DNA of 64,000 nucleotides from positions 8,063 to 72,062 of the forward strand of contig JAPLWH010000014.1 in NCBI GenBank assembly GCA_026396715.1. Reading direction: 5' to 3'. The notes beneath the pieces are model-generated. The model did no database searches, had not been told where the DNA came from, and worked only from the letters and a program-made list of their open reading frames with translations. A program made the translations under genes and the position numbers. The stretch's first letter is position 1, and each line of letters opens with the position of its first letter. Positions 2,180 through 63,584 of this stretch are shown here, piece after piece. The DNA is from Candidatus Kaiserbacteria bacterium (GTDB taxonomy: Bacteria; Patescibacteriota; Minisyncoccia; Phycocordibacterales; Phycocordibacteraceae).

Positions 2180-3009
2180 CTTTTAAAAGATTTAATAGCT
2201 TGCTTGAGCAGTTCTCTTTTTTCTATATGTTTCTTCCATCGGCTGTTTGAGCGATTCCCGTTCATGTATACACCCGATGAAAAATTTATTTCCTGCTCAA
2301 ATCGCATCAGGTTTTCTTTTCCCACGATCACTACTTCATTTGGCTTTACCACGTGCGAATCGATACATACCTCGACGAGGATGGCTCGAATGAGTTTGAG
2401 AATACCGACATCTTTCTGGTAGCCGCGTATACTCCTTCTATTTTCCTCAGGTCGATAATCGATACAACCTTCATCATCGAAAAATGCCCGCAGGAACTCG
2501 CGCTTGCAGTCGAGCGACATACTCCTAACGAGTCGTAACAATTCTTTTGACTTCGTATGCAGGTAAGAGCTCAACGCTACATTGTTATAAGTGATACGTG
2601 ATACTCCGGTCATTTTATTGTAATATCGGCTCGGCTCGAAGTCATACCACTCATGCATGAGCTGTTCGACCCGCTCGATGAGTGCCGTACTTCGATTATT
2701 ATAGGCACATCTGGTGCGAGCAATCTCTCCATCGAAGAGCAGGTGTGCAATAAGAAGCACTGAATCGACGGACCATTCGTCGAAGGTCTTGAACGCACGC
2801 GCACTCTTCCCTTTCCGAGCAAGTGCGAATTTTCTTATTCGTTCTCCGGAAGCAGCTTTATATTGCCGCACACGTTCTTTGCTCAAAGGAATGTCTTTGA
2901 TGTGCGTGTGAATAGAACTTTTTGCTCTGCCGGTCGCCTTCATAATTTCAATAATGCTGTAACCCTCCTTTCGCAAGGCTATACATTGCTCTTTGAAAGA
3001 AGTTTTCAT
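2176..3009 (-). CDS. HTH + LAGLIDADG-type homing-endonuclease-like protein (paralog 1)
   Basis: N-terminal HTH (YSIIEIMKATGRAKSSIH). Two LAGLIDADG-like motifs (HLLFDGEI, FLRAFFDDEGCI). The start codon lies 2 nt after the tRNA-Lys 3' end on the same strand. Confidence 0.6.
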   Translation of the reverse strand: MKTSFKEQCIALRKEGYSIIEIMKATGRAKSSIHTHIKDIPLSKERVRQYKAASGERIRKFALARKGKSARAFKTFDEWSVDSVLLIAHLLFDGEIARTRCAYNNRSTALIERVEQLMHEWYDFEPSRYYNKMTGVSRITYNNVALSSYLHTKSKELLRLVRSMSLDCKREFLRAFFDDEGCIDYRPEENRRSIRGYQKDVGILKLIRAILVEVCIDSHVVKPNEVVIVGKENLMRFEQEINFSSGVYMNGNRSNSRWKKHIEKRELLKQAIKSFKS

Positions 3010-3010
3010 G

Positions 3011-3084
3011 TGCGCCCGGATGGATTTGAACCATCGACCAACGGATTAAAAGTCCGATGCTCTACCAGGCTGAGCTACGGGCGC
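3011..3084 (-). tRNA. tRNA-Lys (anticodon UUU)
   Basis: Cloverleaf GCGCCCG/CGGGCGC acceptor, anticodon loop CUUUUAA, T-loop TTCAAAT. No encoded CCA. Confidence 0.85.
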
Positions 3085-46249: not shown

Positions 46250-46266
46250 TCCGGGCATGAATGCAT

Positions 46267-46303
46267 GACGAAACGCGCCGGCGAAGCCGGCGCGTTTCGT
46301 TTT
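46267..46303. terminator. 34-nt palindromic hairpin (gacgaaacgcgccggc-gaa-gccggcgcgtttcgt) followed by a T-run; left bracket of the GHKL gene
   Basis: 16-bp perfect stem. Acts as the clpP terminator. A near-identical copy lies at 47313-47346. Confidence 0.7.
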
Positions 46304-46315
46304 AACCGAGATCTT

Positions 46316-47398
46316 TTATTTACCGACTCTTTCAACCATAAATCGGACTGCTTCGTCCATGTTTATCGGTTGAATTTCAATATTCGGATGCTTTTCTTTA
46401 AAGACCCTAAAAACCTCATCAGCAAATGCTTGTCCGATTGTCGGCACCTTGTCGAAATCAAGAATTATAGATTCGAATTTATCCAGCCCTTCGAGAATGC
46501 GCCGTGCTTGGGATCTAGATACATGTACCCCATCACCAGAAGCATACAGCTTCACTTTTATCTCAGTTTTGTTAAATGCGAATTCTGTACCGACACTGAA
46601 TTTTCTGAAGATGGCGCTGAGATGTCGTGTTGAATTGACATCAATAGAAAATCTTACCCATGTGCCTCTTTTCAGAGCTGGGAGAGTCTTATAGAACACC
46701 TCGTGCGTCTTATTGTTAATTGTTAAAACATATCCATAACTTTCAAGTGTAAACACATCAGCCGCTTTTGATGTAAAAAAAATACCTTGACCAGAATGAG
46801 ATTTCGGCATGGTGGTGGTCTTCCCTTTCAGCAAGTCCTGCATGGCTTCTAACTCAGTCTTCAATCCCTTTTCTTTCATAATATTGCGGAAAACCCCAAT
46901 CCCAAAGTCGTTGACGATGAAGTGCAATTTTCGGTTTTGAACCGATACTTCAACTTCTACGTATTTTGATTGCGAATGTTCAATTGCATTGTTAAGAATT
47001 TCGGAGAACGCATAATTAAGAATACTTCTGACATTCTCGGAAAGGCGTTTAACTGGAGGATATTGGTTTTGAATATCTTCATAAATTTCGTGCTCTTGCA
47101 GACCATTGTTTTTTAATCGTTTAGAAATCCGTACAGGGAATGCCCCAACTTCGTCGGCTGACTCTGGCAATAGATAGTAAGCTCTGTTCGTTGAACCAAC
47201 CTTGACCAGTTTATCCTTGAATACAAGATCGTTGACCAAGATAACGGCATACTGCCTCGAGATTCCGAATGAAATTGTCGATAGTAAACCGCATATAAGG
47301 TTATTCCAGCGTGACGAAACGCGCCGGCTTCGCCGGCGCGTTTCGTTTGTGTTAGAGTCAGCCCGTACCGCAAGACCGCCCGCCCGACTCGACTGCAC
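46316..47398 (-). CDS. GHKL-type ATPase/kinase-like domain fused to a C-terminal STAS-like (DUF4325-like) domain
   Basis: N-box ILNNAIEHS and G1 box DFGIGV of the HATPase_c fold. C-terminal region resembles anti-sigma-antagonist STAS domains. N-terminal extent uncertain (the track uses a GTG start inside the palindrome). Confidence 0.55.
   Translation of the reverse strand: MQSSRAGGLAVRADSNTNETRRRSRRVSSRWNNLICGLLSTISFGISRQYAVILVNDLVFKDKLVKVGSTNRAYYLLPESADEVGAFPVRISKRLKNNGLQEHEIYEDIQNQYPPVKRLSENVRSILNYAFSEILNNAIEHSQSKYVEVEVSVQNRKLHFIVNDFGIGVFRNIMKEKGLKTELEAMQDLLKGKTTTMPKSHSGQGIFFTSKAADVFTLESYGYVLTINNKTHEVFYKTLPALKRGTWVRFSIDVNSTRHLSAIFRKFSVGTEFAFNKTEIKVKLYASGDGVHVSRSQARRILEGLDKFESIILDFDKVPTIGQAFADEVFRVFKEKHPNIEIQPINMDEAVRFMVERVGK
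47313..47346. repeat. second copy of the 34-nt palindromic hairpin (loop flipped); right bracket of the GHKL gene
   Basis: Stem identical to 46267-46300. The loop is ttc rather than gaa. Confidence 0.7.
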
Positions 47399-47466: not shown

Positions 47467-48996
47467 ATGTCACTCAAAATCATATTGATAATGCTTGCGC
47501 TCTCGGGCGTCGGCGGCATCGTGCTCGGCTACGTGCTGCGCGTCCTCATCGGGCTCGCCCAGCGCGGTTCGGTCGAACTCGACATAAAACAGAAGATCCT
47601 GGCCGCCCAGGAACAGGCGACGAAGATCATCGCCGCTGCGGAGTTTCGTGGCGAAGTCATTGAGACCGAGCGTCTGGCACCTGTCGAGGAGCGCGAAGAA
47701 AAAGTGGTCGCACGCGAAGAACGCATTGCGACGCGCGAAGAATTCCTCGATTCCCGCCAACGCGATCTTGATGAGAAGGAAAATGACGTACGTGCCCGTG
47801 AACAAGATGCGGCGCGTGCGAAAGAAGAAACCGAGAAGCTCAAAAACGAGCGCCTGAAAGAGCTTTCAAGGATTTCGAACCTATCTGAAGAGAAAGCTCG
47901 CGGCGAACTTTTTTCTGAGATTGAGCGCGCGTATGAAGAGTCAATCCTGATGCGCCTGCAAAAGCTTGAGGCGCATGGCCGCGAGCGCCTCGAAGACAAG
48001 GCGCGTTCCATCCTCACGAGCACTATTCATCGGCTCGGCAATGCGGTAAATGCGGAGGTCATGTCGCTCTCGGTCACACTCCCCTCGGAAGACATGAAGG
48101 GAAAGATTATCGGTAAAGAAGGGCGCAATATCAAGGCTTTTGAGCGTGCGACGGGTGTCGACGTGATCATCGACGACGCGCCAGATCGTATTACGCTTTC
48201 CTCATTTGATCCTTTGCGCCGCGCCATCGCGAAGATCGCGCTCGAAAAGCTTATTGCCGATGGTCGCATCCAGCCGACGAAGATTGAAGAGGCGGTGGAG
48301 AAGACGCGAGCTGAGGTCGCAGAAATCGTGAAGCAGAAAGGCGAAGCGGCTGCGTACGAAGTGGGCGTCATCGGGCTCGACCCGAAGCTGACTGCCCTTC
48401 TCGGACGTCTCCACTTCCGCACGAGCTATGGGCAGAATGTTCTCACGCACTCCATCGAGATGGCGCATATCGCGGGCATGCTCGCGGTAGAACTCGGTGC
48501 TGATGTCGCGGTGGCCCGCGCAGGCGCGCTTCTGCACGACATCGGCAAAGCGGTTGATCATGAGGTGCAGGGCACGCATGTCGAGATTGGTCGTCGTATT
48601 CTCGAGAAGTTCGGCGCCGACAAGCGGATTGTTCAGGCGATGCAGTCGCATCACGAGGAGTATCCGTATGAAACGCCCGAGTCAGTCATCGTGCAGGTGG
48701 CCGACGCCATCTCTGGCGGCCGCCCGGGAGCGCGGCGTGACACGGTCGATCGCTATCTCGAACGTCTCGGCGACTTGGAGCGCCTGGCAGCCACGTTTGA
48801 AGGCGTGGAGAAGGTCTACGCAATTGCTGCCGGCCGTGAGATACGCGTCTTCGTGAACCCGGGAAAGATTTCCGACATCGCGATGCACACGCTCGCGCGC
48901 GACATCGCGAAACGTATACAGGATGAATTGAAATATCCGGGCGAAATCAAGGTCAACATCATCCGCGAAAACCGCGTCGTCGAATTTGCGCGATAA
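47467..48996 (+). CDS. rny: ribonuclease Y
   Basis: N-terminal TM helix, coiled coil, KH domain (GKIIGKEGRNIKAFE), HD domain (HSIEMAHIAGMLA...LLHDIGK). Confidence 0.9.
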   Translation: MSLKIILIMLALSGVGGIVLGYVLRVLIGLAQRGSVELDIKQKILAAQEQATKIIAAAEFRGEVIETERLAPVEEREEKVVAREERIATREEFLDSRQRDLDEKENDVRAREQDAARAKEETEKLKNERLKELSRISNLSEEKARGELFSEIERAYEESILMRLQKLEAHGRERLEDKARSILTSTIHRLGNAVNAEVMSLSVTLPSEDMKGKIIGKEGRNIKAFERATGVDVIIDDAPDRITLSSFDPLRRAIAKIALEKLIADGRIQPTKIEEAVEKTRAEVAEIVKQKGEAAAYEVGVIGLDPKLTALLGRLHFRTSYGQNVLTHSIEMAHIAGMLAVELGADVAVARAGALLHDIGKAVDHEVQGTHVEIGRRILEKFGADKRIVQAMQSHHEEYPYETPESVIVQVADAISGGRPGARRDTVDRYLERLGDLERLAATFEGVEKVYAIAAGREIRVFVNPGKISDIAMHTLARDIAKRIQDELKYPGEIKVNIIRENRVVEFAR

Positions 48997-49104
48997 AAAT
49001 CGCGCTTGCCACCGTAAGTGAAGCTTTCTCGTCATACTCGCGAGGAAATACCTAAGTCCGATTGAGGATGTTATTATTGTTGCATTATTCGCCTTTGATA
49101 ATTT

Positions 49105-49359
49105 ATGCAAAAGTATAGTACTTACGCAGAAGTCCCGTGGTATCGGAAAAGTTCCACAAACTCTCTGTTTATTTTAATAAGCATATTTTTCCCACCCCTC
49201 ATCGGGCTTGTGTGTATTCTGCTGATAACAGGAAAAATTTATTTCAACAAACTTGATGTTCAAGGCAACCTAAAAACATGGTCTGTAGCAAATAAGGTTG
49301 TCGCTTTTGTATTTCTTTTTGTACAGCTTACTTTCCTTGCTTTCAGATATTTATTCTAA
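49105..49359 (+). CDS. small two-TM membrane protein in an AT-rich segment
   Basis: 84 aa, hydrophobic. Local GC is about 35% against about 57% in the surroundings. A long hairpin follows at 49373-49413. Confidence 0.4.
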   Translation: MQKYSTYAEVPWYRKSSTNSLFILISIFFPPLIGLVCILLITGKIYFNKLDVQGNLKTWSVANKVVAFVFLFVQLTFLAFRYLF

Positions 49360-49430
49360 TCCCAACTTACCTCAACGCGGGAACACCGAGGTCTGACTTC
49401 GGCGTTCCCGCGTTCGTTTGGTAGTAATAA

Positions 49431-49462
49431 AAAACCACCAAAGAATCTTTGGTGGTGCGGTC
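49431..49462 (-). terminator. Rho-independent terminator of the sigma-r4-like gene
   Basis: ccaccaaag-aatc-tttggtgg stem followed by a T-run on the minus strand. Confidence 0.6.
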
Positions 49463-49499
49463 GAAGGGCAATCCGCGAAGCCCTGTGGCGCATGCGATG

Positions 49500-49802
49500 T
49501 CACGGTCGTTTTTCGAAATACGGCAGGAGCTGCCTCTTTCCGCCGAACTTCGCCAAATGAGACATACCCATCCTTAGGCTTCTGTGCACCGCGTTAGGAG
49601 TAACTTCCCATTCTTCTGCAAGCTCGCGTGGAGTCTTTCCGTCTAAGTATACTCCGATAAAGGCGGCTTTCTGCGCGCGCGGCATTTCCTCAAAAAGCAC
49701 CCTCAGAAGCTTTCGGAGCTCCATCTGTTCCAGCTTCTCGTCTGGCAGCATGGCGTTGTCGATCGCTTCGTTTCTGGTCGAAGCCAATAACGACTTCTTC
49801 AT
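49500..49802 (-). CDS. stand-alone sigma-70 region 4-like HTH protein (100 aa)
   Basis: MPRAQKAAFIGVYLDGKTPRELAEEWEVTPNAVHRSLRMGMSHL fits the sigma70_r4_2 pattern. SD AGGAAGGGG upstream. Confidence 0.55.
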   Translation of the reverse strand: MKKSLLASTRNEAIDNAMLPDEKLEQMELRKLLRVLFEEMPRAQKAAFIGVYLDGKTPRELAEEWEVTPNAVHRSLRMGMSHLAKFGGKRQLLPYFEKRP

Positions 49803-49827
49803 GGGATTCCCCTTCCTGTCTTGTTTG

Positions 49828-49920
49828 ATTGAAAGAACAATTGGGATAGAAACTATCCCACCAAAACTTTCAAACGAGTTGAAGACTTTGGTAGGAGCCG
49901 AAGCAGGGTGCTTCGGCTTC
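49828..49920. repeat. family 1A structured repeat, copy 1 (three hairpins + TGTTCTTTCAAT tail on the minus strand)
   Basis: About 90% identical to copies at 51108-51203 and 53316-53405 and to a partial copy at 51985-52042. Hairpin loops vary while stems are conserved. Confidence 0.8.
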
Positions 49921-49929
49921 GAAGTATTT

Positions 49930-50172
49930 TCATGGTTCTTTCGCCTCCTCTTTTTGCTGTTCTCTTGCGATTACAGCGGATATGGATTTATGTCGGAAGT
50001 ATTCGCGAATGCCAAATTCCAACGCACATGGCTGGCAGATCATGGCGGGTTGGTTATTCGCGAACTGGCCGGTTTTTTTCATCCTGTCAGCAATTTCTTT
50101 TTGTCCGCAGGCCCAGCACTCGTGAAGTTCCGGGGCACCCACTGCTGCATCGACACTGGTGTTGCTGCTCAT
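49930..50172 (-). CDS. small Zn-ribbon protein
   Basis: CWAC...CQPC (two CxxC pairs). SD GGAGGTG 7 nt upstream of the ATG. Confidence 0.5.
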   Translation of the reverse strand: MSSNTSVDAAVGAPELHECWACGQKEIADRMKKTGQFANNQPAMICQPCALEFGIREYFRHKSISAVIAREQQKEEAKEP

Positions 50173-50187
50173 GAGAGACACCTCCAA

Positions 50188-50604
50188 TCAAAAGATTTTC
50201 CCGATTCTCACTGGATTCTTACTCGCCGCCACTACTATTTCCCCGCTCATTCGCTCCAGAGCCATGTCGATCCCAAGTATTCTTGAGACCTCTTCCTTTT
50301 GTGTCCTGTAACAACAACAAGAACAAGAAAGAAGTATCGGACGTGTCCCGAGATGAAAGAGGCCTTCAACTAATGGGCGAATTGTACGCGCGAACGCTTT
50401 TGGTTCAACTAGTGAATACCTGCTTATTTCCCAGTCGTCACGGCCAGTAAATAGGAAGGCAAAAACGAAGGAATTGCGCTCGATTCTCCATTCCTGGGTA
50501 AGTAGTGTCGCTGCCTTGAATTTAGAGAGATTGAGAAATTTTTCTCGAGCAATTTGCACAGCATACTTTGGGTATCTGTTTTTTTCTGGTATCCTCGGAT
50601 ACAT
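50188..50604 (-). CDS. hypothetical Cys-rich protein (138 aa)
   Basis: Contains SCSCCCY. SD GGAGGAATT. Preceded by hairpin + tgttctttcaa module 1D at 50624-50660. Confidence 0.45.
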   Translation of the reverse strand: MYPRIPEKNRYPKYAVQIAREKFLNLSKFKAATLLTQEWRIERNSFVFAFLFTGRDDWEISRYSLVEPKAFARTIRPLVEGLFHLGTRPILLSCSCCCYRTQKEEVSRILGIDMALERMSGEIVVAASKNPVRIGKIF

Positions 50605-50825
50605 AATTCCTCCGTATATTTTTTGTTGAAAGAACATTCGAGCGACTAATTTCGCTCTTCTGAAAAACCATAACGGCTATAGTTTCTTAGAAGAACGGAG
50701 GAGGTGCATAGAGATTAAATCTCGTACACCTCCCCCTTGAAGGTGGAGTTCTAGAAGAATCGGATGATAGCAATCCTTCTCTCCTTGGCGTTTTTGACTG
50801 GACTGCTTTAGGCTTCCTTCAAAGC

Positions 50826-51089
50826 CTAGCGGAGCTTGTCAGATTCCGCTACCAGTAAGTCGTTGGCATCGGGGAAAACCATTCCATTCTCGATTCTGTA
50901 CATCTTACCGGGGTTTCTATATCTGAGTACCTCTTCCTTATTGGCGATGAACGCTGGCACAGATTTGAACCGGACGCACATCTTTTCTACGAACTCCGTA
51001 AGTGGCACAGGGCTGTCGTTTTTGAAAATGATTTTAGCAATGTAATGCTGAACACCACTATCATCTAGATTCGTGACAAGATACTGCAT
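50826..51089 (-). CDS. hypothetical protein (88 aa)
   Basis: Start MQYLVTNLDD with SD GGAGGTG. Track ORF 50826-51266 is over-extended through the repeat. Confidence 0.45.
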   Translation of the reverse strand: MQYLVTNLDDSGVQHYIAKIIFKNDSPVPLTEFVEKMCVRFKSVPAFIANKEEVLRYRNPGKMYRIENGMVFPDANDLLVAESDKLR

Positions 51090-51107
51090 GGAGCACCTCC
51101 TTATTTC

Positions 51108-51203
51108 GATTGAAAGAACATTTGGGATAGAAACTATCCCACCAAAACTTTCAAACGAGTTGAAAACTTTGGTGGGAGCCGAAGCGGTGTTTTGCTTCGG
51201 CTG
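51108..51203. repeat. family 1A structured repeat, copy 2
   Basis: See copy 1. Confidence 0.8.
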
Positions 51204-51216
51204 GATAAGGTAGGCG

Positions 51217-51549
51217 CTACCACACGGTAGCGAGCGGGAAGAATGCCGCCGGGCGTGGCACCGCACCCCTCCTCTCGGTCAGAATCCCCGCGAGAAAAGC
51301 TTTGGCGATCGCCTCGGCAATGCTGCCTCGGATATCAGCCTCGGCGACCCACGTGATATCAGGAAACTTTCCGATAATCATCACGTTTCTCACTTGCTCG
51401 GGAAAAATTCCGAGAGTCGAGAACATATCCCGAATTGTCTGTCCCGGGAGGACCACAATTGGATCATTGTCTTTCTCGAGTTCGACGACAACGACACTTG
51501 CAGTTCCATCAACTCCGTCCAGAAATTCGTTCAATTCCTTTTCTCTCAT
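51217..51549 (-). CDS. hypothetical protein (110 aa)
   Basis: Start MREKELNEF with SD AAGGTG. Preceded by family 1B leader copy 1. Confidence 0.45.
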   Translation of the reverse strand: MREKELNEFLDGVDGTASVVVVELEKDNDPIVVLPGQTIRDMFSTLGIFPEQVRNVMIIGKFPDITWVAEADIRGSIAEAIAKAFLAGILTERRGAVPRPAAFFPLATVW

Positions 51550-51568
51550 GGCGCACCTTCTTTCTTTA

Positions 51569-51738
51569 GTTAAAAGAACATAAGCGGCACAATTACCGCT
51601 TTCTTGAAGAAATCATTGCTGACGTCCTCGAGAAAACGGCGGAGCGGGAATGTCTATATGACACCCATTGCTCCGCCATCCCGCGCCTCATCGACATGGG
51701 CGTCGAGCTCCCCGGAACTTCCTCGGGGTATTACGCCT
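51569..51738. repeat. family 1B repeat, copy 1 (about 170 nt)
   Basis: About 90% identical to 52927-53127 over the shared part. Contains the aagcgg-N8-ccgctt hairpin plus the TGTTCTTTCAA tail on the minus strand. Confidence 0.75.
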
Positions 51739-51984
51739 ATTTTTACGACCTAGGATGGTCGGACGATTCACGGCAAGAACTTTTTTCGTAGATAGCGCCA
51801 TGCTGGCGCTATCTACGCGCTGGAGAAACGCCTGCACTGAATATCAGTGCGCTATTGTCTTGCGATCGACAATACTTTCTATCAAGTGATCCGTGTAGAA
51901 AAGATCTTCCGTCAGGAAATCTTTTCTTTCACAGCCCATTTTTGACAGTCTCATAAATTTAATTATGTGACGGCGTATCTCCCG

Positions 51985-52042
51985 CCAAAACTTTCAAACG
52001 AGTTGAAAACTTTGGTAGGAGCCGAAGCAGGATGCTTCGGCT
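51985..52042. repeat. family 1A repeat, partial copy 3 (hairpins 1-2 only)
   Basis: Identical distal half. Proximal hairpin 3 and the tail are missing. Confidence 0.7.
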
Positions 52043-52056
52043 TAGGGGTAGGTAGA

Positions 52057-52572
52057 TTATGAAGACATGAGGCGACTTAAAAGTCGTCCCCAGTCTTTCG
52101 CTTGCGCCACCGTGGGGTCCCCTTCTTCGAAAGGAGCATGGGCGATCACGAGGCGGGTTTCGTCAATCCGGAAGACTGGCTGACTCCCATCCTCGTGCCA
52201 ATAGGCAGGACAGATGAGATCCAGCGCGGCGGTCAGTGGGCCGGAGTGATGATTAGCATCGGTAATGATACCGACGTATTTCACTCCGCACTGCACCGCC
52301 CGAAGCGCAAGGATGAATCCATACGGGACTTCTCCCTCGCCCACTTGAGAACATGATGCGGTTTTTTCTGCCGGCATGTTGAGATCCAGCAGGGCCGCAT
52401 CGAACGGGACTGATGCGAGATTTTGATATTCACGCGCCGCCCCCTCGTTCCCAAGCAGGAGTTCCGAAGCGATAACGAACGACTTCACGATTGTGACGTC
52501 GTGTTGCTCCGTCAATTGTTTCTTGGCCGCCTCACGATGTTTTTTGTTATCCTCAACGACGAGAATTCTCAC
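52057..52572 (-). CDS. stand-alone response-regulator receiver (REC) domain protein with C-terminal extension
   Basis: MRILVVEDN..., phospho-acceptor context ALLDLNMP, CheY-like spacing. About 60-aa extension. Confidence 0.6.
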   Translation of the reverse strand: MRILVVEDNKKHREAAKKQLTEQHDVTIVKSFVIASELLLGNEGAAREYQNLASVPFDAALLDLNMPAEKTASCSQVGEGEVPYGFILALRAVQCGVKYVGIITDANHHSGPLTAALDLICPAYWHEDGSQPVFRIDETRLVIAHAPFEEGDPTVAQAKDWGRLLSRLMSS

Positions 52573-52907
52573 TTTACCTCTCCTTTATTGACTTGTAGGT
52601 TAAGTGCACTTGCAAACTCCCCAATGAGGAAAGGGAGTCGCAAGTAATTTTGCACATTCGTGGGCTGTCTTGAGAACCCGAAGCCAAAAACTTTCGTGTT
52701 CAGCTCAAGGCTCTCCAGTTTCTCGATGGTCCGTGCGCCGTCCTTAATATCGCAGTTAACCAGAACAAAATCAGGCTTTTCCTGACTCACTTTGGCGACT
52801 GCTTCATATGGCCGCACAGAACTTACCGAAAGGCCACACTGATTGGCAATCATAGAGAAGGGCTTCTCCATGGCACGATTTTCTTCCGTCACAATCATCA
52901 GATTCAT
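52569..52907 (-). CDS. stand-alone receiver (REC)-like domain protein
   Basis: MNLMIVTEEN..., PDFVLVNCDIKDG (acidic pocket). SD GGAGG 8 nt upstream. Confidence 0.5.
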   Translation of the reverse strand: MNLMIVTEENRAMEKPFSMIANQCGLSVSSVRPYEAVAKVSQEKPDFVLVNCDIKDGARTIEKLESLELNTKVFGFGFSRQPTNVQNYLRLPFLIGEFASALNLQVNKGEVK

Positions 52908-52926
52908 TACCATTACCTCCTATTTT

Positions 52927-53127
52927 GATTGAAAGAACATAAGCGGCACAATTACCGCTTTCTTGAAGAAATCATTTCTGACGTCCTCGAGAAAACGGCG
53001 GAGCGGGACTGTCTGTATGACACCCATTGCTCCGTCATCGCGCGCATCCTTCAAGGGATGCCCACACGATCCAGACATGACAGCTTGCTGGTTGAGCCCT
53101 CCGGAACTTCCCCGGAGTATTACGCCT
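52927..53127. repeat. family 1B repeat, copy 2 (about 200 nt)
   Basis: See copy 1. Carries a 45-nt insertion relative to copy 1. Confidence 0.75.
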
Positions 53128-53299
53128 CACTTAACCACTGAGGATAGCGGCTACTATAATTGCCGCAGTCTGGACAGGTACCATCCGTCCGCTCCTCCTT
53201 TGGTACCCAATTGTCCTCGTGGCTGCCGCATTTCTGGCAGTACGGACAATCCACAATTTCAATGTCGCCGTCCTTGTGGGTAATAAATAGTATTGGCAT
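53120..53299 (-). CDS. candidate 59-aa Zn-ribbon protein (MPILFITHKDGDIEIVDCPYCQKCGSHEDNWVPKEERTDGTCPDCGNY...)
   Basis: Two CxxC pairs. SD GGAGGG 6-7 nt upstream. Preceded by family 1A copy 4. Not in the ORF track because it is under 60 aa. Frame derived by hand. Confidence 0.4.
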   Translation of the reverse strand: MPILFITHKDGDIEIVDCPYCQKCGSHEDNWVPKEERTDGTCPDCGNYSSRYPQWLSEA

Positions 53300-53315
53300 A
53301 AACCCTCCTTAATGG

Positions 53316-53405
53316 TTTGAAAGAACAAGTGGGATAGAATCTATCCCACCAAAACTTTCAAACGAGTTGAAAACTTTGGTAGGAGCCGAAGCAGGATGCT
53401 TCGGC
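53316..53405. repeat. family 1A structured repeat, copy 4
   Basis: See copy 1. The hairpin 3 loop differs (aat vs aaa). Confidence 0.8.
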
Positions 53406-53426
53406 TATGTAATTAAGGTAGGAATA

Positions 53427-53912
53427 TCAGATGCGGTATTGTTGCGAAAGCTCTCGACGGAAAAGTTCTTTTTCCGTGAGCTCGCGGCCGAACATGTTTT
53501 TTGTGGTGCATGTACAGTCCGGCTTGAGTTCGTTGGCGGGACGCTTAAACTTTTTAAGCGCGAATTCAAGCATTGCGGTTTTCTCCGCGCCGTTGATCCT
53601 CATCAGGTCGTCAATCAAATCGAACCATCCACACAAAAAACATGGTTCGTGAAGATGTTCATCCCTGACAGTCAATATTGTCTTTGATCGCTCGGTATAG
53701 TTGCTGTTCTCGTTCTCGTTCACGGTAGAAACTACCAAAAACAGCGAGCCAGCATAACGCATGCCATCAGGGAAGATTCCGGAATCGTGGGCGAATACCC
53801 ACCGATTTGCGTACCCTCCACCATCGCCTCTCTCATACCAAAAGAGTGGGCGTTTTTCAATTTGGCCTTTCAGATACTCAAGCCGCTCCAATGTCTGATT
53901 CTTATCCATCAC
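53427..53912 (-). CDS. hypothetical protein (161 aa)
   Basis: SD GGAGGAGG upstream of a GTG/ATG start. No recognisable domain. Preceded by module 1C at 53935-53985. Confidence 0.45.
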   Translation of the reverse strand: MMDKNQTLERLEYLKGQIEKRPLFWYERGDGGGYANRWVFAHDSGIFPDGMRYAGSLFLVVSTVNENENSNYTERSKTILTVRDEHLHEPCFLCGWFDLIDDLMRINGAEKTAMLEFALKKFKRPANELKPDCTCTTKNMFGRELTEKELFRRELSQQYRI

Positions 53913-54232
53913 GTACCTCCTCCTTGTTGGTTTCGATTAATGAAAGAACTTAGGATTGCTTTCACAATCCCTATGCCAAGCGGAAATGGTTGAGGGGTAC
54001 GGCATTATATGCGCCGAATTGTCCCGCTCCAGAGCCACTTCGCGCTCAGCTAGGAATAACGAACTTAACTATTCAAATGTCAGTGATCACAGTTAGGACG
54101 TTCTCCAAACTGATATCGATACAATACCACCGACGGCATTGACAGTACAAAATATTCTTGTCTTTAGAGTATTTATGACAAATAAGGCATATAAAATATG
54201 GATTTTCTTATGTTTATTTATGTCTAAAAAAC

Positions 54233-54262
54233 TTGACAGAAAAGCTGCTTTTGCTACTCTCT
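54233..54262 (+). promoter_or_regulatory. sigma70-like promoter (TTGACA-16 nt-TACTCT) giving a near-leaderless transcript for the TrmB-like gene
   Basis: Consensus -35 and a -10-like element 5-7 nt before the ATG, in an AT-rich intergenic region. Confidence 0.45.
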
Positions 54263-54266
54263 CAGT

Positions 54267-55079
54267 ATGAATACATCAGAAAAGCCTGCGCTGCTTGGGC
54301 TCTCAAAAAAGGAAGAAAAAGTGCTCTCGTCTCTTCAGGACGGCGTCGATACTCCCCTTTCGCTGGCGCGCGCAACCGGCGTGTCGCGTACGGCTATATA
54401 CGCAATACTCGGGAATCTTAAAAAACGCGGTTTGGCGCATACGCGTATCGTCGGCGGGAAGAAGTACTGGAGTCTTGCTCCCGAACGCGAAATCGAGGAA
54501 GTAGTATATGAGGCAAAGCGCGCACTTCTTAAGATTCCGGAGGGGCGCGAAGAAGTGTATGGTCTTTCCGATTCAACCGTTATTATCCACCGCGGGCAGG
54601 ATTCAATACGAAAAGTATTTGGCGAATTGCTCTTCGTGCATAAGAACGAGCGGTTCTACGGCCTTGTAGGCGATAGTGCAGCAGCTAATTGGAACAAAAT
54701 GTTTAGCCTTCAAGAGACAAATCGCTTCAATCGCGCCCTCAAGAGAAATAACATAATCGCTGAGACGATTACTCAAGATGGATTGCTCGAACGACAGGCG
54801 AGGGAGCTGGGAGTCTCGTGGGCTAAAGATTTTGAAGGGCGGACGACGAGGGTAAATGTGATTGATGGCGAGTATTTTGCTCATGGCGCACAGATATTTA
54901 TCTTCAAGCAGTCCATATATCTGATGGCTCTCGGAGAAGATCTGGTCATCGAGATTCGCAACTCGGAAATTCAGAAGATGCTACTTACCTTTTTCAAGTT
55001 TATGCAGGACAATTCGCGCGTGATTGATGCGAACGCACTTTTGCGATCGATTATTGCCGAAATTGAGGACAAAAAATAA
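54267..55079 (+). CDS. TrmB-like winged-helix transcriptional regulator
   Basis: N-terminal wHTH (LSKKEEKVLSSLQDGVDTPLSLARATGVSRTAIYAILGNLKKRGL) typical of TrmB/MarR-like regulators. C-terminal domain unknown. Confidence 0.5.
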   Translation: MNTSEKPALLGLSKKEEKVLSSLQDGVDTPLSLARATGVSRTAIYAILGNLKKRGLAHTRIVGGKKYWSLAPEREIEEVVYEAKRALLKIPEGREEVYGLSDSTVIIHRGQDSIRKVFGELLFVHKNERFYGLVGDSAAANWNKMFSLQETNRFNRALKRNNIIAETITQDGLLERQARELGVSWAKDFEGRTTRVNVIDGEYFAHGAQIFIFKQSIYLMALGEDLVIEIRNSEIQKMLLTFFKFMQDNSRVIDANALLRSIIAEIEDKK

Positions 55080-55217
55080 GTTTGCGCGGTAGAAGTAGTG
55101 ATTTCGCATTGTCCCCGCGGGTCTGTAAAGCCCTATTGCGCAATACGGCGCATTTCCTATACTTTCTTCATACCCACCCCCGAGACAGGTCGTGGGATTA
55201 GCAGCTAGCAGATATTC

Positions 55218-55490
55218 ATGAACAAAGCAGACATAGTCGACAAGGTACACGGCGTTCTCGGATCGACGAAAGCCGATGCTGAGCGCGCTGTCGAAACCGT
55301 TATCGATTCGATTGTTTCCAGTCTTAAGTCGGGGGATGAAGTGTCGATCGCAGGCCTCGGTATTTTCGCGACGAAGGCTCGCCCCGCGCGCCAGGGCAGG
55401 AATCCCCGCACCGGCGAGACGATTCATATCGCAGCAAGCCGCACCGCGAAGTTCCGCGCCGCAAAGGCGTTGAAGGACGCAGTGAAATAA
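55218..55490 (+). CDS. hupA: DNA-binding protein HU
   Basis: MNKADIVDKV... and GFGTF-like arm region (GLGIFATKARPARQGRNPRTGE). Confidence 0.9.
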   Translation: MNKADIVDKVHGVLGSTKADAERAVETVIDSIVSSLKSGDEVSIAGLGIFATKARPARQGRNPRTGETIHIAASRTAKFRAAKALKDAVK

Positions 55491-55546: not shown

Positions 55547-55561
55547 AAGCCCTGTCATTTG

Positions 55562-55633
55562 TGCGGGCGGCGGGAGTCGAACCCGCGCTGATTGCTTGGA
55601 AGGCAACCGTCATAGCCGTTAGACCACGCCCGC
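55562..55633 (-). tRNA. tRNA-Gly (anticodon UCC)
   Basis: GCGGGCG acceptor, anticodon loop CUUCCAA, T-loop TTCGACT. Confidence 0.85.
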
Positions 55634-56326
55634 TTTCTCAATTTCCGATAAAATCGCCTCATTCCAGAGCTGGATTTTCCGGAAAAAGACTACTCCATAT
55701 TCTTTTCTCCCTCCACTCTGAACAGTCATTTGTACGGTACCGTAAGGAAGTTTGCGTCGTTTCTTAGCTTTCTTATCAGTGCGACTGTCAATTTGGTGTT
55801 TCTGGAATTGGGATACTGGAATGCTAGTGGTACGGGACCAAAATTGCAAACTTTGCTTCACGTCGCTGTCTGGATAGAGATGTAGGCGAAGTCGTAACTG
55901 TCTCTTCTCCACACCAAGCATTCTAAACCATGCAATGGTGGCTTGGATGATGCGTGGATCTGAATTTATCATACGAACCTGACTATTCGTTTTGCTTCCC
56001 TCCCCAAGATAGAGGCCCAGACCAAACACAAAAAGGTCTCTCCGGCTCATTTTTCCAATGTCTTTGGCGGCTGTTTTTCTGATTTCCTGAATTGATTTTT
56101 GTCGCAGCTCAGCCCGGCGCGCACCGGCTGCGGCCCGTGCTTTCCCAAAGGAATCTATCGTTTCTTTGTTTGGAGCGTACGGTGTTTCCGTGAGCCATCC
56201 GCTCAATGTGCTTTTAGAAAGTCCGGTCTTAGCCGAAATGTACGTATAAGAAAAGCCACTTTTTCGTAATGCCAAAGCTTTTTCTCGAATAGACAGGTTG
56301 TGCATGTGTAGATTATATATCTGCAC
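55619..56326 (-). CDS. HTH + LAGLIDADG-like protein (paralog 2)
   Basis: HTH (YTYISAKTGLSKSTLSGW) and LGLYLGEGSK motif. The 3' end overlaps the tRNA-Gly(UCC) 5' end by about 15 nt. Confidence 0.55.
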   Translation of the reverse strand: MQIYNLHMHNLSIREKALALRKSGFSYTYISAKTGLSKSTLSGWLTETPYAPNKETIDSFGKARAAAGARRAELRQKSIQEIRKTAAKDIGKMSRRDLFVFGLGLYLGEGSKTNSQVRMINSDPRIIQATIAWFRMLGVEKRQLRLRLHLYPDSDVKQSLQFWSRTTSIPVSQFQKHQIDSRTDKKAKKRRKLPYGTVQMTVQSGGRKEYGVVFFRKIQLWNEAILSEIEKAGVV

Positions 56327-58036: not shown

Positions 58037-58231
58037 GGCTTTTTAAAATATGGCTTATTCTATCAGTATACTTTAGGACCAGATAAGAATTCACTTAATG
58101 AACAGGTGTCCTTTATCCCCAGTATGAACAGGTTTATCCCCTTATCATACAGAACGAAAAGACATGCAAAAACGGCTCAATCGAGCCGTTTTTGCATGTA
58201 GGAACCATCTTGAAGTCAAATACTGATTTTG

Positions 58232-58302
58232 TGCGGGCAGGGAGAATCGGACTCCCGTCTCGTCCTTGGCAAGGACGCGTTCTACCACTGAACCATGCCC
58301 GC
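58232..58302 (-). tRNA. tRNA-Gly (anticodon GCC)
   Basis: GCGGGCA acceptor, anticodon loop UUGCCAA, T-loop TCCGATT. Confidence 0.85.
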
Positions 58303-58308
58303 AGACCG

Positions 58309-58989
58309 CTACATCTTCGCATAATAAGCTTCATTCATCAATTCCTTGGGTAACAGTTTCAACCATTCGAGCATCTTTACTTTCAAATAAGTGCTTGAAA
58401 TACCAATCATGCACACCCCGTATTTAATTCGGCGTGTTTTATGGCGCCCCACTATGATAGTACTCTTGGTAAATTGCGACAGATTGACGCTTGATTCATG
58501 GGACCAGTATTTCCGGCAGTCTTCATCGCTAAGATCTGGATATATGAGCACGTGCGCCCGTATCTTTTCTTCAGGGATTCTGCAAGCGTTTTTGAGGAAA
58601 AACACGTATAAACGAATTAAGTCAGGGTCGGTATTGGTAATTGCGGTTGAATATTTAGTTAATTTGTCTCCCTCTCCCCAGTAAAGCATCAGGCCAGCGA
58701 TGAAAAGAGGATTGTATTTCATTTCATTAAATTCAACCCTTGCCTCTTCGCGTGCCTCCTCATACACTTTCTTCAAGTGCTGACCTCGTACTCTATTGAG
58801 ATCAATGAGTCTAGTTGTATGCTGGTCTTGAGCTTGAGATGCGAGTCTTTCCTTAATCTGTTTCGACCAATCAACTGTGCTGAACCATCCTGAAAGAGTT
58901 CCTTTGGGTATTTTAAGAGCTTTACGGATCTCCAGATAACTCTTTCCTCTTCGGCGAAGAACGAAAGCTTCTTGCTTATCTTTCCGCAT
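58309..58989 (-). CDS. HTH + LAGLIDADG-like protein (paralog 3)
   Basis: HTH (YLEIRKALKIPKGTLSGW) and AGLMLYWGEGDK motif. Its stop lies 6 nt before the tRNA-Gly(GCC) 5' end. Confidence 0.55.
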   Translation of the reverse strand: MRKDKQEAFVLRRRGKSYLEIRKALKIPKGTLSGWFSTVDWSKQIKERLASQAQDQHTTRLIDLNRVRGQHLKKVYEEAREEARVEFNEMKYNPLFIAGLMLYWGEGDKLTKYSTAITNTDPDLIRLYVFFLKNACRIPEEKIRAHVLIYPDLSDEDCRKYWSHESSVNLSQFTKSTIIVGRHKTRRIKYGVCMIGISSTYLKVKMLEWLKLLPKELMNEAYYAKM

Positions 58990-59978: not shown

Positions 59979-60185
59979 ATGCCGCCAAGCGGATTCAGTA
60001 AGAAGACAGTGGAAGGACTTCTCACATTCGTGAAAGGCAATTACGAGGATTTACAGGAGGAAGTTCGGTCTGGAAAGCATTTGAGTGTTGAAGCCGCGAT
60101 TGATTATGAGATCGCGCAGCTTGGGAAAGCTCTCGAAAAGTTGCATATCAACAAAGAAGGCGGCATTGTCGAGAAGACTGCGTAA
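59979..60185 (+). CDS. small hypothetical protein (68 aa)
   Basis: SD AAAGGAGG 8 nt upstream. Followed by a terminator. Confidence 0.45.
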   Translation: MPPSGFSKKTVEGLLTFVKGNYEDLQEEVRSGKHLSVEAAIDYEIAQLGKALEKLHINKEGGIVEKTA

Positions 60186-63368: not shown

Positions 63369-63584
63369 GTGCCAGAAATAATTCTGACGCCTGTAAAACT
63401 CATTGGGATTGTGAAAGATGTATACGAAGAAATAAACAGTTACCGAAGCAAAGGAGAAGAGTTTGTTTTGAGAATGATTCAGAGCCGGTTTACTGAGGTA
63501 TTAGGAAAGTTTACTCAAGATCAGATAGACAAAACTCTGTCTGAAATGGATACTTCGCAGTTGTATATATCAAAACAGTTGTAA
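63369..63584 (+). CDS. small hypothetical protein (71 aa, GTG start)
   Basis: SD AGGAAAGGAGAA upstream. Terminator ggtccggcaaa-cttt-gccggacc + T6 downstream (63630-63657). Confidence 0.4.
   Translation: MPEIILTPVKLIGIVKDVYEEINSYRSKGEEFVLRMIQSRFTEVLGKFTQDQIDKTLSEMDTSQLYISKQL

Follow-up and report, generated by a model that had tools for sequence, protein, structure and literature searches.

By its sequence, the segment from 48993 to 55080 of the 64-kb window analyzed here is an island that was acquired horizontally and lies at the extreme 3' end of rny in a member of Candidatus Kaiserbacteria (CPR/Patescibacteria). We favor, with a probability of about one half, the reading that the island is one acquired operon in which each cistron would be furnished with an rrn-type boxB-boxA Nus-factor site, carried in a modular leader RNA. 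BoxA is the signal by which rRNA operons and phage lambda keep RNA polymerase from stopping.

An acquired island between rny and hup

The island, about 6.09 kb long, sits between rny and hup (Table 1). These genes are adjacent without an insert in three close relatives, L026, L027, and L028, whose RNase Y is 96%, 90%, and 89% identical, respectively, to the copy in the window. L026 aligned to window positions 48900 to 48998 and 55081 to 55300, the two matches overlapping by 14 nt in L026, and the ancestral sequence picks up again at 55081. Both ends of the island carry a 12-nt direct repeat, the duplicated sequence being TTTGCGCG(A/G)TA(A/G). The junction TTTGCG(A)GATAAAAA recurs in L005, a second genome that carries an island, where the island end meets rny at the same place. 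The GC content of the block was 47.4%, against 52.1%. The insertion relative to three close relatives, the short flanking direct repeat, and the deviating GC content thus support the proposal of the initial annotation that the block behaves as a single unit of foreign origin. Its extent, previously given as 49000 to 54270, is larger, its limits being the stop codons of rny and the TrmB-like gene.

Table 1. Coordinates of the island features within the window
Feature	Position	Strand	Remarks
Left direct repeat, TTTGCGCGATAA	48985..48996	+	Gives rny its last codons and stop codon
Hydrophobic ORF, 84 aa	49105..49359	+	AT-rich left end of insert; no SD, no family match
Predicted operon end	49374..49456	-	Canonical intrinsic terminator ACCACCAAAGATTCTTTGGTGGT then TTTTTAT (49456-49434); second hairpin, 20 bp (49414-49374)
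g9, stand-alone sigma-70 region-4 HTH protein, 100 aa	49500..49802	-	Pfam Sigma70_r4_2
1A copy 5' of g9	49820..49918	-	P1, P2, P3, boxA-like tail 49829-49839
g8, CxxC...CxxC protein, 80 aa	49930..50172	-	SD 15 nt past g7 stop codon
g7, Cys-rich protein, no assigned function, 138 aa	50188..50604	-	
g7 leader, 220 nt	50605..50825	-	Hairpin GAGCGA-AATTAG-TCGCTC (50657-50640), boxA-like TGTTCTTTCAA (50636-50626)
g6, no assigned function, 87 aa	50826..51089	-	
1A copy 5' of g6	51101..51199	-	BoxA-like at 51110-51120
g5, no assigned function, 110 aa	51217..51549	-	
1B copy 5' of g5	51565..51790	-	BoxA-like TGTTCTTTTAA at 51570-51580
Truncated 1A, P1 and P2 only	51975..52042 (about)	-	Just past g4 stop codon
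g4, predicted receiver-fold protein, 171 aa	52057..52572	-	GTG start overlaps g3 stop codon (GTGA)
g3, degenerate receiver-like protein, 112-114 aa	52569..52913	-	Probable start ATG at 52907
1B copy 5' of g3	52924..53145	-	BoxA-like 52929-52939; 5' end overlaps g2 3' end
g2, zinc-ribbon protein (CxxC...CxxC), 59 aa	53120..53299	-	
1A copy 5' of g2	53308..53406	-	BoxA-like at 53317-53327
g1, no assigned function, first operon gene, 160-161 aa	53427..53912	-	
Divergent intergenic region, g1/TrmB-like gene	53913..54266	.	Presumed operon promoter site
g1 leader	53941..53971	-	Hairpin GGGATTG-TGAAAG-CAATCC(T), AA, boxA-like GTTCTTTCA
TrmB-like winged-helix protein, 270 aa	54267..55079	+	Inside insert; stop codon abuts right repeat
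Right direct repeat, TTTGCGCGGTAG	55081..55092	+	Ancestral rny 3' end, then ancestral rny-hup spacer

Nine small genes in a putative operon

All credible genes between 49500 and 53912 are short (59 to 171 aa) and lie on the minus strand, as described earlier, but there are nine of them rather than eleven. The two extra ORFs, at 52920-53078 and 51688-51837, fall within copies of the 1B leader, and the frame of the former hits a stop codon in other 1B copies (CATACAG versus CATATAG). The nine genes form seven translation units (g1, g2, g3-g4, g5, g6, g7-g8, and g9), with g4 and g8 translationally coupled to g3 and g7, respectively.

The assignment of g9 as a stand-alone sigma-70 region-4 protein was confirmed by its match to the Pfam family (E=4.8e-8, 33 bits, above the Pfam cut-off); ECF sigma models were matched in their C-terminal part only. 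The CxxC...CxxC motifs of g2 and g8 agree with the two zinc ribbons reported before. Of two supposed stand-alone receiver proteins, g4 is modeled with a receiver fold, and g3 is receiver-like but degenerate.

A strong Shine-Dalgarno (SD) core (GGAGG, AGGAG, or GAGGT) precedes seven of the nine genes, not every gene as first thought, with weaker sequences ahead of g5 (AGAAGG) and g9 (GGAAGGGG). For comparison, we scanned candidate starts within the first 40 codons of 44 ORFs of at least 200 aa from the rest of the window. The core was present at any candidate start in 3 ORFs and at the first ATG in only 1, consistent with the claim that host genes lack an SD.

The lack of recognizable internal promoters or terminators suggests a single minus-strand operon. 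Its promoter is presumed to lie in the divergent intergenic region, where candidate promoters were found at 54009-54004 (TATAAT) and 54181-54154 (TTGTCA-16-AAGAAT). No sigma-70-like hexamer pairs were detected within the leader modules.

Two families of structured leader RNA

The repeat modules are, within the window, confined to the island. A 30-nt core of 1A occurs four times versus 0 expected. Four genes had been credited with a 1A leader; three complete copies precede g2, g6, and g9, and the fourth copy is truncated, with about 400 nt of different noncoding sequence after it. The two copies of 1B, upstream of g5 and g3, stand as annotated. Neither family is represented in Rfam. Between the window and L001/L013, the leaders are 90 to 96% identical, and the adjacent coding sequences are 76 to 83% identical.

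Both 1A and 1B are structured RNAs of the sense strand. Compensatory changes were found in 7 of 51 base pairs of 1B, compared with 2.3 ± 1.2 in shuffles (1 of 500 was as high), and in 1 of 24 pairs of 1A, which is too conserved for more. Across the helices of the two families, eight G.U pairs and no A.C pair are invariant, a bias that places the helices on the sense RNA. The folding energy of 1B was -83.7 kcal/mol for the sense strand and -70.7 kcal/mol for the antisense strand.

A variable hairpin followed by a boxA-like element

Each translation unit is preceded by one copy of a conserved tail, TGTTCTTT(C/T/A)AA, giving seven copies in the island. The tail begins 1 to 5 nt past a hairpin of variable sequence and ends 4 to 18 nt ahead of the SD. 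The hairpin with its conserved tail, noted earlier as preceding each gene, is a real recurring module. A hairpin ends 1 to 5 nt upstream of every tail; g4 and g8, however, have no module of their own. With up to one mismatch, TGTTCTTTCAA occurs six times in the window, always in the island, versus 1.5 occurrences expected per 64 kb. The degenerate motif G[CT]TCTTT[ACT]A occurs seven times in the island, every time in leader position; the remaining 2 x 58 kb contain six occurrences, all outside leaders, and it was never in leader position in 64 kb of relatives' DNA. Across 21 loci, the motif search returned 28 matches, about 24 of which are leader modules. These comprise at least six unrelated hairpin sequences of 6 to 10 bp (-8 to -14 kcal/mol), all of which stop 1 to 5 nt short of GTTCTTT, with the SD 4 to 18 nt later in nearly all cases.

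The tail matches published boxA elements. In the rrn spacers of Taylorella, boxA is TGTTCTTTAACA and boxB is a stem-loop without sequence conservation (PMC2666751); in Legionella, GTTCTTTAAAA leads to approximately 10-fold more transcript (PMC7862264). The consensus is GYTCTTTAANA, with functional boxA elements located 50 nt or less from start codons (PMC5725501). As a point against the boxA reading, the island motif departs at 1 or 2 of 11 positions (C for A at position 8, T for A at position 11) from this gamma-proteobacterial consensus. Neither the window nor the flanks of the contig nor the loci of the relatives contained rRNA genes; GTTCTTTNAA matches boxA by its likeness to published elements of other bacteria, and the host's own boxA may differ.

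In two distant relatives, a boxA-like element lies 3' of a canonical TTGAC(A/G)-N17-TAT(A/T)AT promoter and hence in the 5' UTR. The order in L030 is TTGACA-N17-TATTAT, the hairpin CTCAG-ATATA-CTGAG, CAAA, GTTCATTAAAAC, SD, and ATG; in L029, it is TTGACG-N17-TATAAT, GGTCTTTTA without a hairpin, and SD. The position of these promoters argues that the element is probably an RNA leader element rather than a promoter.

A model for the island

We infer that the nine genes are transcribed as one RNA, from the divergent region between g1 and the TrmB-like gene to the terminator at 49456-49434. In each translation unit, a boxB-like variable hairpin would be followed after 1 to 5 nt by boxA, (T)GTTCTTT(C/T/A)AA, and then by a strong SD. 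As the predicted binding site of the host NusB-NusE(S10) dimer, boxA would allow the Nus complex to be reloaded onto RNA polymerase at every cistron, so that the polymerase may pass the stable intergenic hairpins (P1, P2, and the 1B stems) and withstand Rho. Alternatively, boxA may tune the start of translation, as at suhB. The 1A and 1B families would then be modular leader RNAs, joined to different genes, with the hairpin-boxA unit at their 3' ends. To our knowledge, one boxA normally suffices per operon and seven in 4.5 kb have no precedent, which counts against the boxA reading.

Alternative explanations

The hairpin and tail might instead be bound, on RNA or DNA, by a sequence-specific island or host protein other than NusB/E, which we consider unlikely. 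Such a protein (g2, g8, g9, and the TrmB-like protein would be candidates) would coordinate all cistrons as an N-like antiterminator, a translational repressor, or a roadblock repressor on P2. The island does encode several small proteins of nucleic-acid-binding type, and a TrmB-family gene neighbors an island or a g4 homologue in three contexts (window, L013, and L029); however, the three TrmB-family proteins are remote relatives of one another, and these genomes commonly carry TrmB-like genes. P2 contains an inverted repeat matching at 9 of 11 positions around TTCAA-N5-TTGAA, and TTTCAA/TTGAAA occurs three times in each 1A. As a near palindrome in DNA, P2 could be a protein operator, another point against the Nus/boxA reading. 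On the other hand, the tail corresponds to published boxA sequences, and the G.U bias assigns the helices to the sense RNA. Other versions of the island keep the same leaders but lack g1, g2, g6, g7, and g9, so that only the g3, g4, g5, and g8 families can be a universal island partner. It is less probable still that the hairpins and U-rich tails are weak intrinsic terminators or attenuators ahead of each gene, causing a stepwise drop in expression from g1 to g9 or regulated read-through. A simple terminator scan flagged 19 sites versus 5.8 expected, mostly hairpin-tail units, which also counts against the boxA reading; in 1B, a GC-rich stem is followed by GTTTTCT, and the tail can pair alternatively with the 3' arm of P2. 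Yet the tail is invariant over at least six hairpin classes, without a variable T-run; it begins 1 to 5 nt past the stem with A or G and has at most three consecutive U's, whereas the real terminator of the island has a clean T5 directly past its stem. Terminators placed 10 to 20 nt before every SD, with no later promoter, would silence the operon unless overridden, which leads to antitermination again.

We give slightly less credence to the modules being sites of RNA processing or stabilization, at which RNase III (acting on P2 or the 1B stems) or an RNase Y/E-type enzyme (acting on the AU-rich tail past the hairpin) would release monocistronic mRNAs that have a protective hairpin at each end, 5' and 3'. 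The polycistronic RNA of the phage T7 early region is cut into monocistronic mRNAs with protective hairpins. Long perfect helices between genes (17 bp in P2 and 18 bp in helix 7 of 1B), the position of P1 directly past stop codons, and the retention of only P1 and P2 in the truncated 1A past g4 would suit such cleavage, but the invariant GTTCTTT, its boxA identity, and the boxA-like element in single-gene 5' UTRs of distant relatives would be left unexplained. Processing is, moreover, compatible with the boxA explanation and hence no true alternative. The initial annotation viewed each module as a terminator-promoter junction in which the tail would belong to the promoter, implying nine independent transcription units. 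While the spacing between the conserved block and each start is indeed short and fixed, P1 does come after stop codons, and promoter rules in CPR bacteria are poorly known, this reading appears highly improbable. The modules have no -35/-10 pairs, the expected -35 region is a hairpin without sequence conservation, and P1 lacks a U-tract. What follows the hairpins is a fixed sequence matching boxA rather than a T-run directly past the stem, and in L029 and L030 a boxA-like element sits in the 5' UTR downstream of canonical promoters, with a hairpin ahead of it in L030.

Comparison with known systems

Like integrative genomic islands that target the 3' end of a conserved gene, the island is inserted precisely where rny ends, a short direct repeat restoring the stop codon, and the same site is occupied in a second genome (L005). 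In contrast to such islands, no integrase, transposase, excisionase, or inverted terminal repeats were detected within its 6.1 kb. Integron cassette arrays share with it the short, same-strand, mostly uncharacterized genes between conserved structured repeats, and the junction modules remain constant where gene order and content vary (window versus L013). However, the island has no integrase, R''-L''/L'-R' architecture, or GTTRRRY core of attC, and its modules carry an SD and boxA, stand upstream of genes, and are structured on the sense RNA.

Lambda nut sites also combine boxA and a hairpin on a mobile element to make its operons termination-resistant, as the island would do. In lambda, boxA precedes boxB, each operon has a single site, the hairpin of boxB is conserved, and the N protein is required, whereas the island hairpins differ between cistrons. 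Searches of phage and viral collections gave no matches, and the island contained no hallmark genes, no phage genes, and no N homologue. At suhB and in CRISPR array leaders, a boxA-type motif lies within 50 nt of the start codon or heads a Rho-sensitive transcript, and the boxA of suhB is 6 nt from the SD, a spacing like that in the island. Known elements of this kind are single sites, with 0 to 7 per genome (PMC5725501), whereas seven share this one island, each set within a repeated structured RNA.

The island differs from rrn boxB-boxA in that its elements precede protein-coding cistrons, 4 to 18 nt before a strong SD, and occur as seven copies in 4.5 kb of acquired DNA; no boxC was recognized, and the gap between hairpin and boxA is only 1 to 5 nt. 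In both systems, a nonconserved hairpin comes first in the transcript, followed by (T)G(C/T)TCTTT(A)A, and the elements recur in one transcription unit, in rrn operons in the leader and the spacer.

An insertion between rny and hup

The window is part of a 78-kb contig from a MAG of Candidatus Kaiserbacteria. Three relatives, with RNase Y sequences 96, 90 and 89% identical to that of the window, lack the island, and their HU gene follows rny after 125 to 165 nt. In the window, by comparison, the end of rny is at 48996 and the start of hup at 55218. One of these island-free loci (L026) aligns at 94% identity to window positions 48900-48998 and 55081-55300, the two matches sharing 14 nt in L026. 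The present end of rny, TTTGCGCGATAA at 48985-48996, is repeated as TTTGCGCGGTAG, the old rny end, at 55081-55092, immediately 3' of the stop codon of a TrmB-like gene. The two-part match and the end repeat therefore define an inserted unit of ~6.09 kb, which contains an 84-aa hydrophobic ORF, a nine-gene operon and the TrmB-like gene. The GC content of the island is 47.4%, as opposed to 52.1% in the rest of the window. Both its composition and its absence from the relatives bear out the initial annotation, which had suggested a single, possibly phage- or plasmid-derived unit here, in that the block behaves as one unit of foreign origin.

In L005, a Hainich groundwater contig from a more distant genome, the island ends 20 nt from that genome's own rny stop codon, with an identical junction. 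The version in another MAG (L013/L001) neighbors rplJ-rplL, not rny. Domain searches found no recombinase domain in any island protein, and the island ends are free of terminal inverted repeats. The 3' end of rny is a defined integration site for an element without a recognizable recombinase. An extended att-like similarity between the left island end and the ancestral spacer was not significant (score of 17, equaled or exceeded in 71 of 500 shuffles). The TrmB-like gene was considered as an island hallmark or recombinase and dismissed: its family is widespread in Parcubacteria (56-88% identity), the orthologue in L031 is chromosomal, downstream of hup and without an island, and the HTH is its only recognizable part. 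The HTH is also all that the TrmB proteins of the window and L013 have in common. Taken together, we assign a probability of about 0.9 to the block being an acquired island with modular RNA leaders.

Variable genes occur at two further places nearby. One is the region 3' of hup, a hot spot in Kaiserbacteria relatives (L031 3148-10825; L028 11694-13400), with toxin-antitoxin, NYN, NUDIX, radical SAM and several TrmB-family genes. The other lies between clpP (end at 46249) and rny (start at 47467), at 46263-47348 of the window, where 40-nt GC-rich hairpins that are 90% identical (46263-46302 and 47309-47348) bracket a 360-aa minus-strand ORF with a GHKL-ATPase-like motif (46316-47398). In the island-free relatives L027 and L028, rny directly follows clpP, and L026 has a YafQ-like toxin pair in that spot.

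Elsewhere in the window, some ORFs directly adjoin a tRNA gene of the same strand. The start of a 277-aa LAGLIDADG_3 protein (2176-3009) is 1 nt after tRNA-Lys (3010-3084), a 235-aa HTH protein (55619-56326) ends within tRNA-Gly (55561-55633), and a 155-aa ORF (58309-58776) is located beside another tRNA-Gly (58231-58302). These are possibly tRNA-linked units of the homing-endonuclease type. Cumulative GC skew reaches its minimum at ~16-19 kb, close to the dnaA gene mentioned in the initial annotation, consistent with a replication origin there.

Small genes with strong Shine-Dalgarno sequences

Eleven genes had been claimed for the island. Between 49500 and 53912, the minus strand has nine ORFs whose starts are credible, as listed in the table. 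The two additional ORFs, at 52920-53078 and 51688-51837, sit within repeats of the 1B leader module, and the frame of the former is interrupted by a stop codon in the other 1B copies.

Small genes of the island, with window coordinates
Gene	Position	Strand	Product	Remark
g1	53427-53912	-	161 aa	
g2	53120-53299	-	59 aa	CxxC...CxxC
g3	52569-52907/52913	-	112-114 aa	
g4	52057-52572	-	171 aa	GTG start overlaps g3 stop codon
g5	51217-51549	-	110 aa	
g6	50826-51089	-	87 aa	
g7	50188-50604	-	138 aa	
g8	49930-50172	-	80 aa	15 nt past g7
g9	49500-49802	-	100 aa	

The reported contrast in Shine-Dalgarno (SD) usage is real, since strong cores precede seven of the nine island genes, whereas in the remainder of the window only 3 of 44 long ORFs have one at any candidate start (1 of 44 if only the first ATG is considered). 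Strong SDs, AAAGGAGG and AAAGGAGA, were also seen before two small ORFs without family matches, at 59979-60185 (68 aa) and 63369-63584 (71 aa). These are located in or adjoin low-GC stretches (58-60 kb, GC of 0.42) and may be further acquired genes.

Among the nine proteins, g9 gave the sole significant Pfam match (Sigma70_r4_2, 33 bits), in agreement with its earlier designation as a stand-alone sigma-70 region-4 protein. Weak Pfam matches were obtained to zinc ribbons for g2 and g8 and to Response_reg for g3 and g4. NCBIfam, PHROGs and PADLOC added nothing for the nine proteins: PHROGs matches of island proteins were weak and to unknown or sigma families, and PADLOC yielded no defense-system match except for the HTH of the TrmB-like protein. 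For g4, the Response_reg score was 16 bits, below the cutoff of 30, and its AlphaFold model (pLDDT of 71) matches receiver domains (Foldseek E of 1.5e-4, TM of 0.4-0.55). The model keeps E7-D8 and the aspartate of LLDLNMP, candidates for the acidic pocket and the phospho-acceptor of a receiver; g3 is more degenerate. Close relatives of g4 are rare, with five clusters among 5.8 billion proteins, and a profile search returned 1,056 cluster representatives, suggesting that g4 is a member of a large family of receiver-like proteins that has not been described. Its members share a conserved VPYGFI.AL...TD.NHH core, and many carry CxxC-rich insertions near the C-terminus.

Two repeated structured leaders

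The 30-nt core of the ~95-nt 1A module occurs four times in the window, with none expected, and TGTTCTTTCAA (at most one mismatch) occurs six times, always within the island, compared to 1.5 expected per 64 kb. Four genes had been credited with a 1A leader. Complete copies do precede g2, g6 and g9; the fourth, right after g4, consists of the first two hairpins only. The two copies described for the ~200-nt 1B module are both present. Every 1A and 1B copy is in gene orientation, with its 5' end near a stop codon and its 3' end near an SD, and no copy was found in the other 58 kb of the window or in 64 kb of the relatives' DNA.

The modules have the properties of structured RNA. In their helices, eight G.U pairs are invariant, as opposed to none of the A.C type, a bias that is not expected of a DNA palindrome. 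In 1B, 7 of 51 pairs show compensatory changes, compared with 2.3 ± 1.2 after shuffling (equaled or exceeded once in 500 shuffles) and with 0-3 when the pairing partners were slid; the sense strand folds 13 kcal/mol better than the antisense strand. Conservation of 1A is too high for covariation, and the T-to-C change in helix P2 of the g9 copy, a candidate compensatory change, produces a C.A mismatch. Of the Rfam covariance models, only those for tRNAs reached their gathering scores in the window: the best matches within the island (E of 0.02 to 4.5) were far under these scores, and neither at gathering scores nor at E up to 5 was there anything for 1A or 1B. The two modules are new, well-delimited structured RNA motifs, suited to covariance models.

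Folding predictions raise the possibility of a switch in 1A, in which the conserved tail that precedes the SD would pair with the 3' arm of P2 and CUCCU with the SD. This is the minimum-energy fold of the g2 copy. The g9 copy favors a related fold, which also breaks P2; for the other copies, P2 and P3 form in the minimum-energy structure.

Between g4 and g5, 507 nt (51550-52056) contain no gene. The truncated 1A lies here, together with the second 1B copy and a hairpin of 14 perfect base pairs (51787-51817). The stretch may have been left behind by a cassette since lost, or it may be a small RNA. All 1B copies also contain an invariant seven-codon mini-ORF (ATG ATT TCT TCA AGA AAG CGG TAA, MISSRKR; 52952-52975 and 51593-51616), located 8 nt past a GAGGA and with its stop codon within the loop of the boxB-like hairpin. 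It could be a leader peptide or a coincidence, its invariance precluding a choice.

A boxA-like element before each translation unit

The nine genes form seven translation units (g1, g2, g3-g4, g5, g6, g7-g8 and g9), each preceded by a hairpin and a conserved tail of the form TGTTCTTTNAA; a 20-nt RNA with the GUUCUUU core is AAUGUUCUUUCAAUCGAAAU. GTTCTTT is invariant in all seven island leaders and in nearly all related ones. In six of seven island tails it is followed by (C/T/A)AA (CAT in g1), and in six of seven it is preceded by TG. A search for the motif plus SD in all loci gave 28 matches, ~24 of which are leader modules. Here, GTTCTTT begins 1-5 nt past the end of a 6-10-bp hairpin, and the SD follows 4-18 nt later in nearly all cases. 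The island has seven matches to the pattern G[CT]TCTTT[ACT]A, one for each translation unit, and the rest of the window has six, with a leader at none of the six; none of its matches in 64 kb of the relatives' DNA was in a leader position.

The tail resembles boxA of rRNA operons (rrn form, TGCTCTTTAACAA), agreeing with GYTCTTTAANA at 9-10 of 11 positions, although this consensus is gamma-proteobacterial and may not be that of the host. Gram-positive rrn boxA is TGTTCTTTGAAAA-like. A mycoplasma 16S-23S spacer primer, GTTCTTTGAAAACTGAAT, is consistent with such a boxA and is not termed boxA in its paper. Cores identical to that of the tail have been published as boxA, namely TGTTCTTTAACA in Taylorella rRNA spacers, where boxB is a stem-loop without sequence conservation (PMC2666751), and GTTCTTTAAAA in Legionella, which increases transcript levels ~ten-fold (PMC7862264). 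The consensus GYTCTTTAANA comes from work in which boxA near start codons regulates genes such as suhB (PMC5725501), and boxA also precedes CRISPR arrays in several phyla, its consensus drifting from one lineage to another (PMC7665894). At least six classes of unrelated sequence can be distinguished among the hairpins before the tail; as with rrn boxB, a stem-loop adjoins the boxA-like element, and its structure is conserved while its sequence is not. Neither the window and its contig flanks nor the loci of the relatives contain an rRNA gene. The three island-free relatives (L026, L027 and L028) have the gene for NusA 3 kb upstream of rny.

The tail is always on the gene strand, and its position relative to promoters can be read in distant contexts of the g4 family. 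L030 contains, in order, TTGACA-N17-TATTAT, the hairpin CTCAG-ATATA-CTGAG, CAAA, GTTCATTAAAAC, an SD and ATG, and L029 contains TTGACG-N17-TATAAT, then GGTCTTTTA without a hairpin, then an SD. In these two relatives, the element lies between the promoter hexamers and the SD, i.e., in the 5' UTR. In a third context (L021), GTTCTTTGATAAG is ~90 nt downstream of a TTGACA; a -10 hexamer was not found. By analogy, the island elements would likewise be transcribed. We consider the odds about even that the tails are boxA, that is, putative NusB/NusE sites.

Alternative explanations of the modules

The initial annotation had interpreted the hairpin and tail as a terminator-promoter junction. A simple terminator scan does flag the hairpin-tail units. 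The tails, however, are a fixed sequence with at most three consecutive U's, separated from the stem by 1-5 nt, rather than a T-run; the sole site in the island that fits the definition of an intrinsic terminator is that at the presumed end of the operon, 49456-49434, with a clean T5. Neither does the promoter half of the interpretation hold: no module contains a -35/-10 hexamer pair at 16-18 nt spacing, and the six sigma-70-type matches in the whole island equal the shuffle expectation of 6.5. Translation of the tail as a mini-ORF (ATG/TTG TTC TTT CAA, MFFQ...) is contradicted by g1, L001 and L010, which have AAG, TAG or CAG at the start position, and no SD is found upstream.

Dispersed repeats and cassettes were also considered. 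Unlike a MITE or REP-type family, the module copies are confined to the island, have one orientation and keep a fixed placement from stop codon to SD. An integron would account for an array of cassettes separated by attC sites, but it is at odds with the P2 arms, which do not fit RYYYAAC/GTTRRRY, and with the lack of a recombinase domain among the island proteins. Thus, the modules are neither an integron array, a MITE family, canonical terminators nor promoters.

Related islands

Scans of genomes and metagenomes with the 1A pattern identified one MAG contig and ten Hainich contigs, and look-ups of g4 relatives added further loci. The families of g3, g4, g5 and g8 recur across islands; among the loci compared, g1 and g2 were found in the window only and g6, g7 and g9 only on near-identical contigs. 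Gene order varies among island versions, and 1A was found before at least eight genes that are not related to one another. Leaders of the window and of L001/L013 share 90-96% identity, as opposed to 76-83% for the adjacent coding sequences. At L001 1930-2110, the noncoding region of the island contains G, C and T runs and an N block; this is probably an assembly artifact and therefore unfit for comparisons.

Scans of viral contigs found no match to the cores of 1A and 1B, to a degenerate 1A pattern or to g4 relatives, and tblastn of g1 and g4 against 50,697 phage records was likewise negative. Phage hallmark genes and phage or viral similarity, as expected of a prophage or phage-derived element, were not found for the island.

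Proposed mechanism and comparison with known systems

In the mechanism that we propose, the nine-gene operon would be transcribed from a single promoter in the divergent region between g1 and the TrmB-like gene, with the transcript ending at 49434. The nascent RNA would present a boxB-like hairpin and a boxA at each translation unit. NusB-S10 would bind boxA and, with NusA and NusG, render RNA polymerase resistant to termination, so that it could pass the stable intergenic structures and withstand Rho. Alternatively, the outcome may be a suhB-like effect on translation, which is possible because the tail and SD are 4-18 nt apart.

A more far-reaching and rather unlikely scenario is a portable expression system. 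In it, modular leader RNAs (1A, 1B and others) with a boxB-like hairpin and boxA per cistron would recruit the host Nus machinery at each gene, perhaps with the help of small RNA-binding proteins of the island that target the variable hairpins as N does in lambda. The island would thereby escape the Rho silencing of foreign DNA, strong SDs would impose SD-led translation, and the modules may be recombination joints that shuffle gene cassettes between islands.

To our knowledge, transcription and translation signals of CPR/Patescibacteria are almost unstudied. Should the tails be boxA, this would be the first case known to us of a mobile island giving each cistron an rrn-type antitermination signal and the first indication of how these bacteria express acquired genes. 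It would also connect Nus factors with SD usage and with the Rho-dependent silencing of foreign DNA in a way that can be tested. If they are not, the locus is still a clean strain-specific island with unusually conserved modular leaders, of narrower interest.

The proposed system would work like the rrn and nut antitermination sites and the boxA elements of mRNAs. It differs from them in that the element is repeated before every cistron, within repeated structured leaders that are absent from Rfam. Furthermore, it resides on an acquired island of a CPR bacterium and is accompanied by strong SDs, which this host otherwise barely uses.
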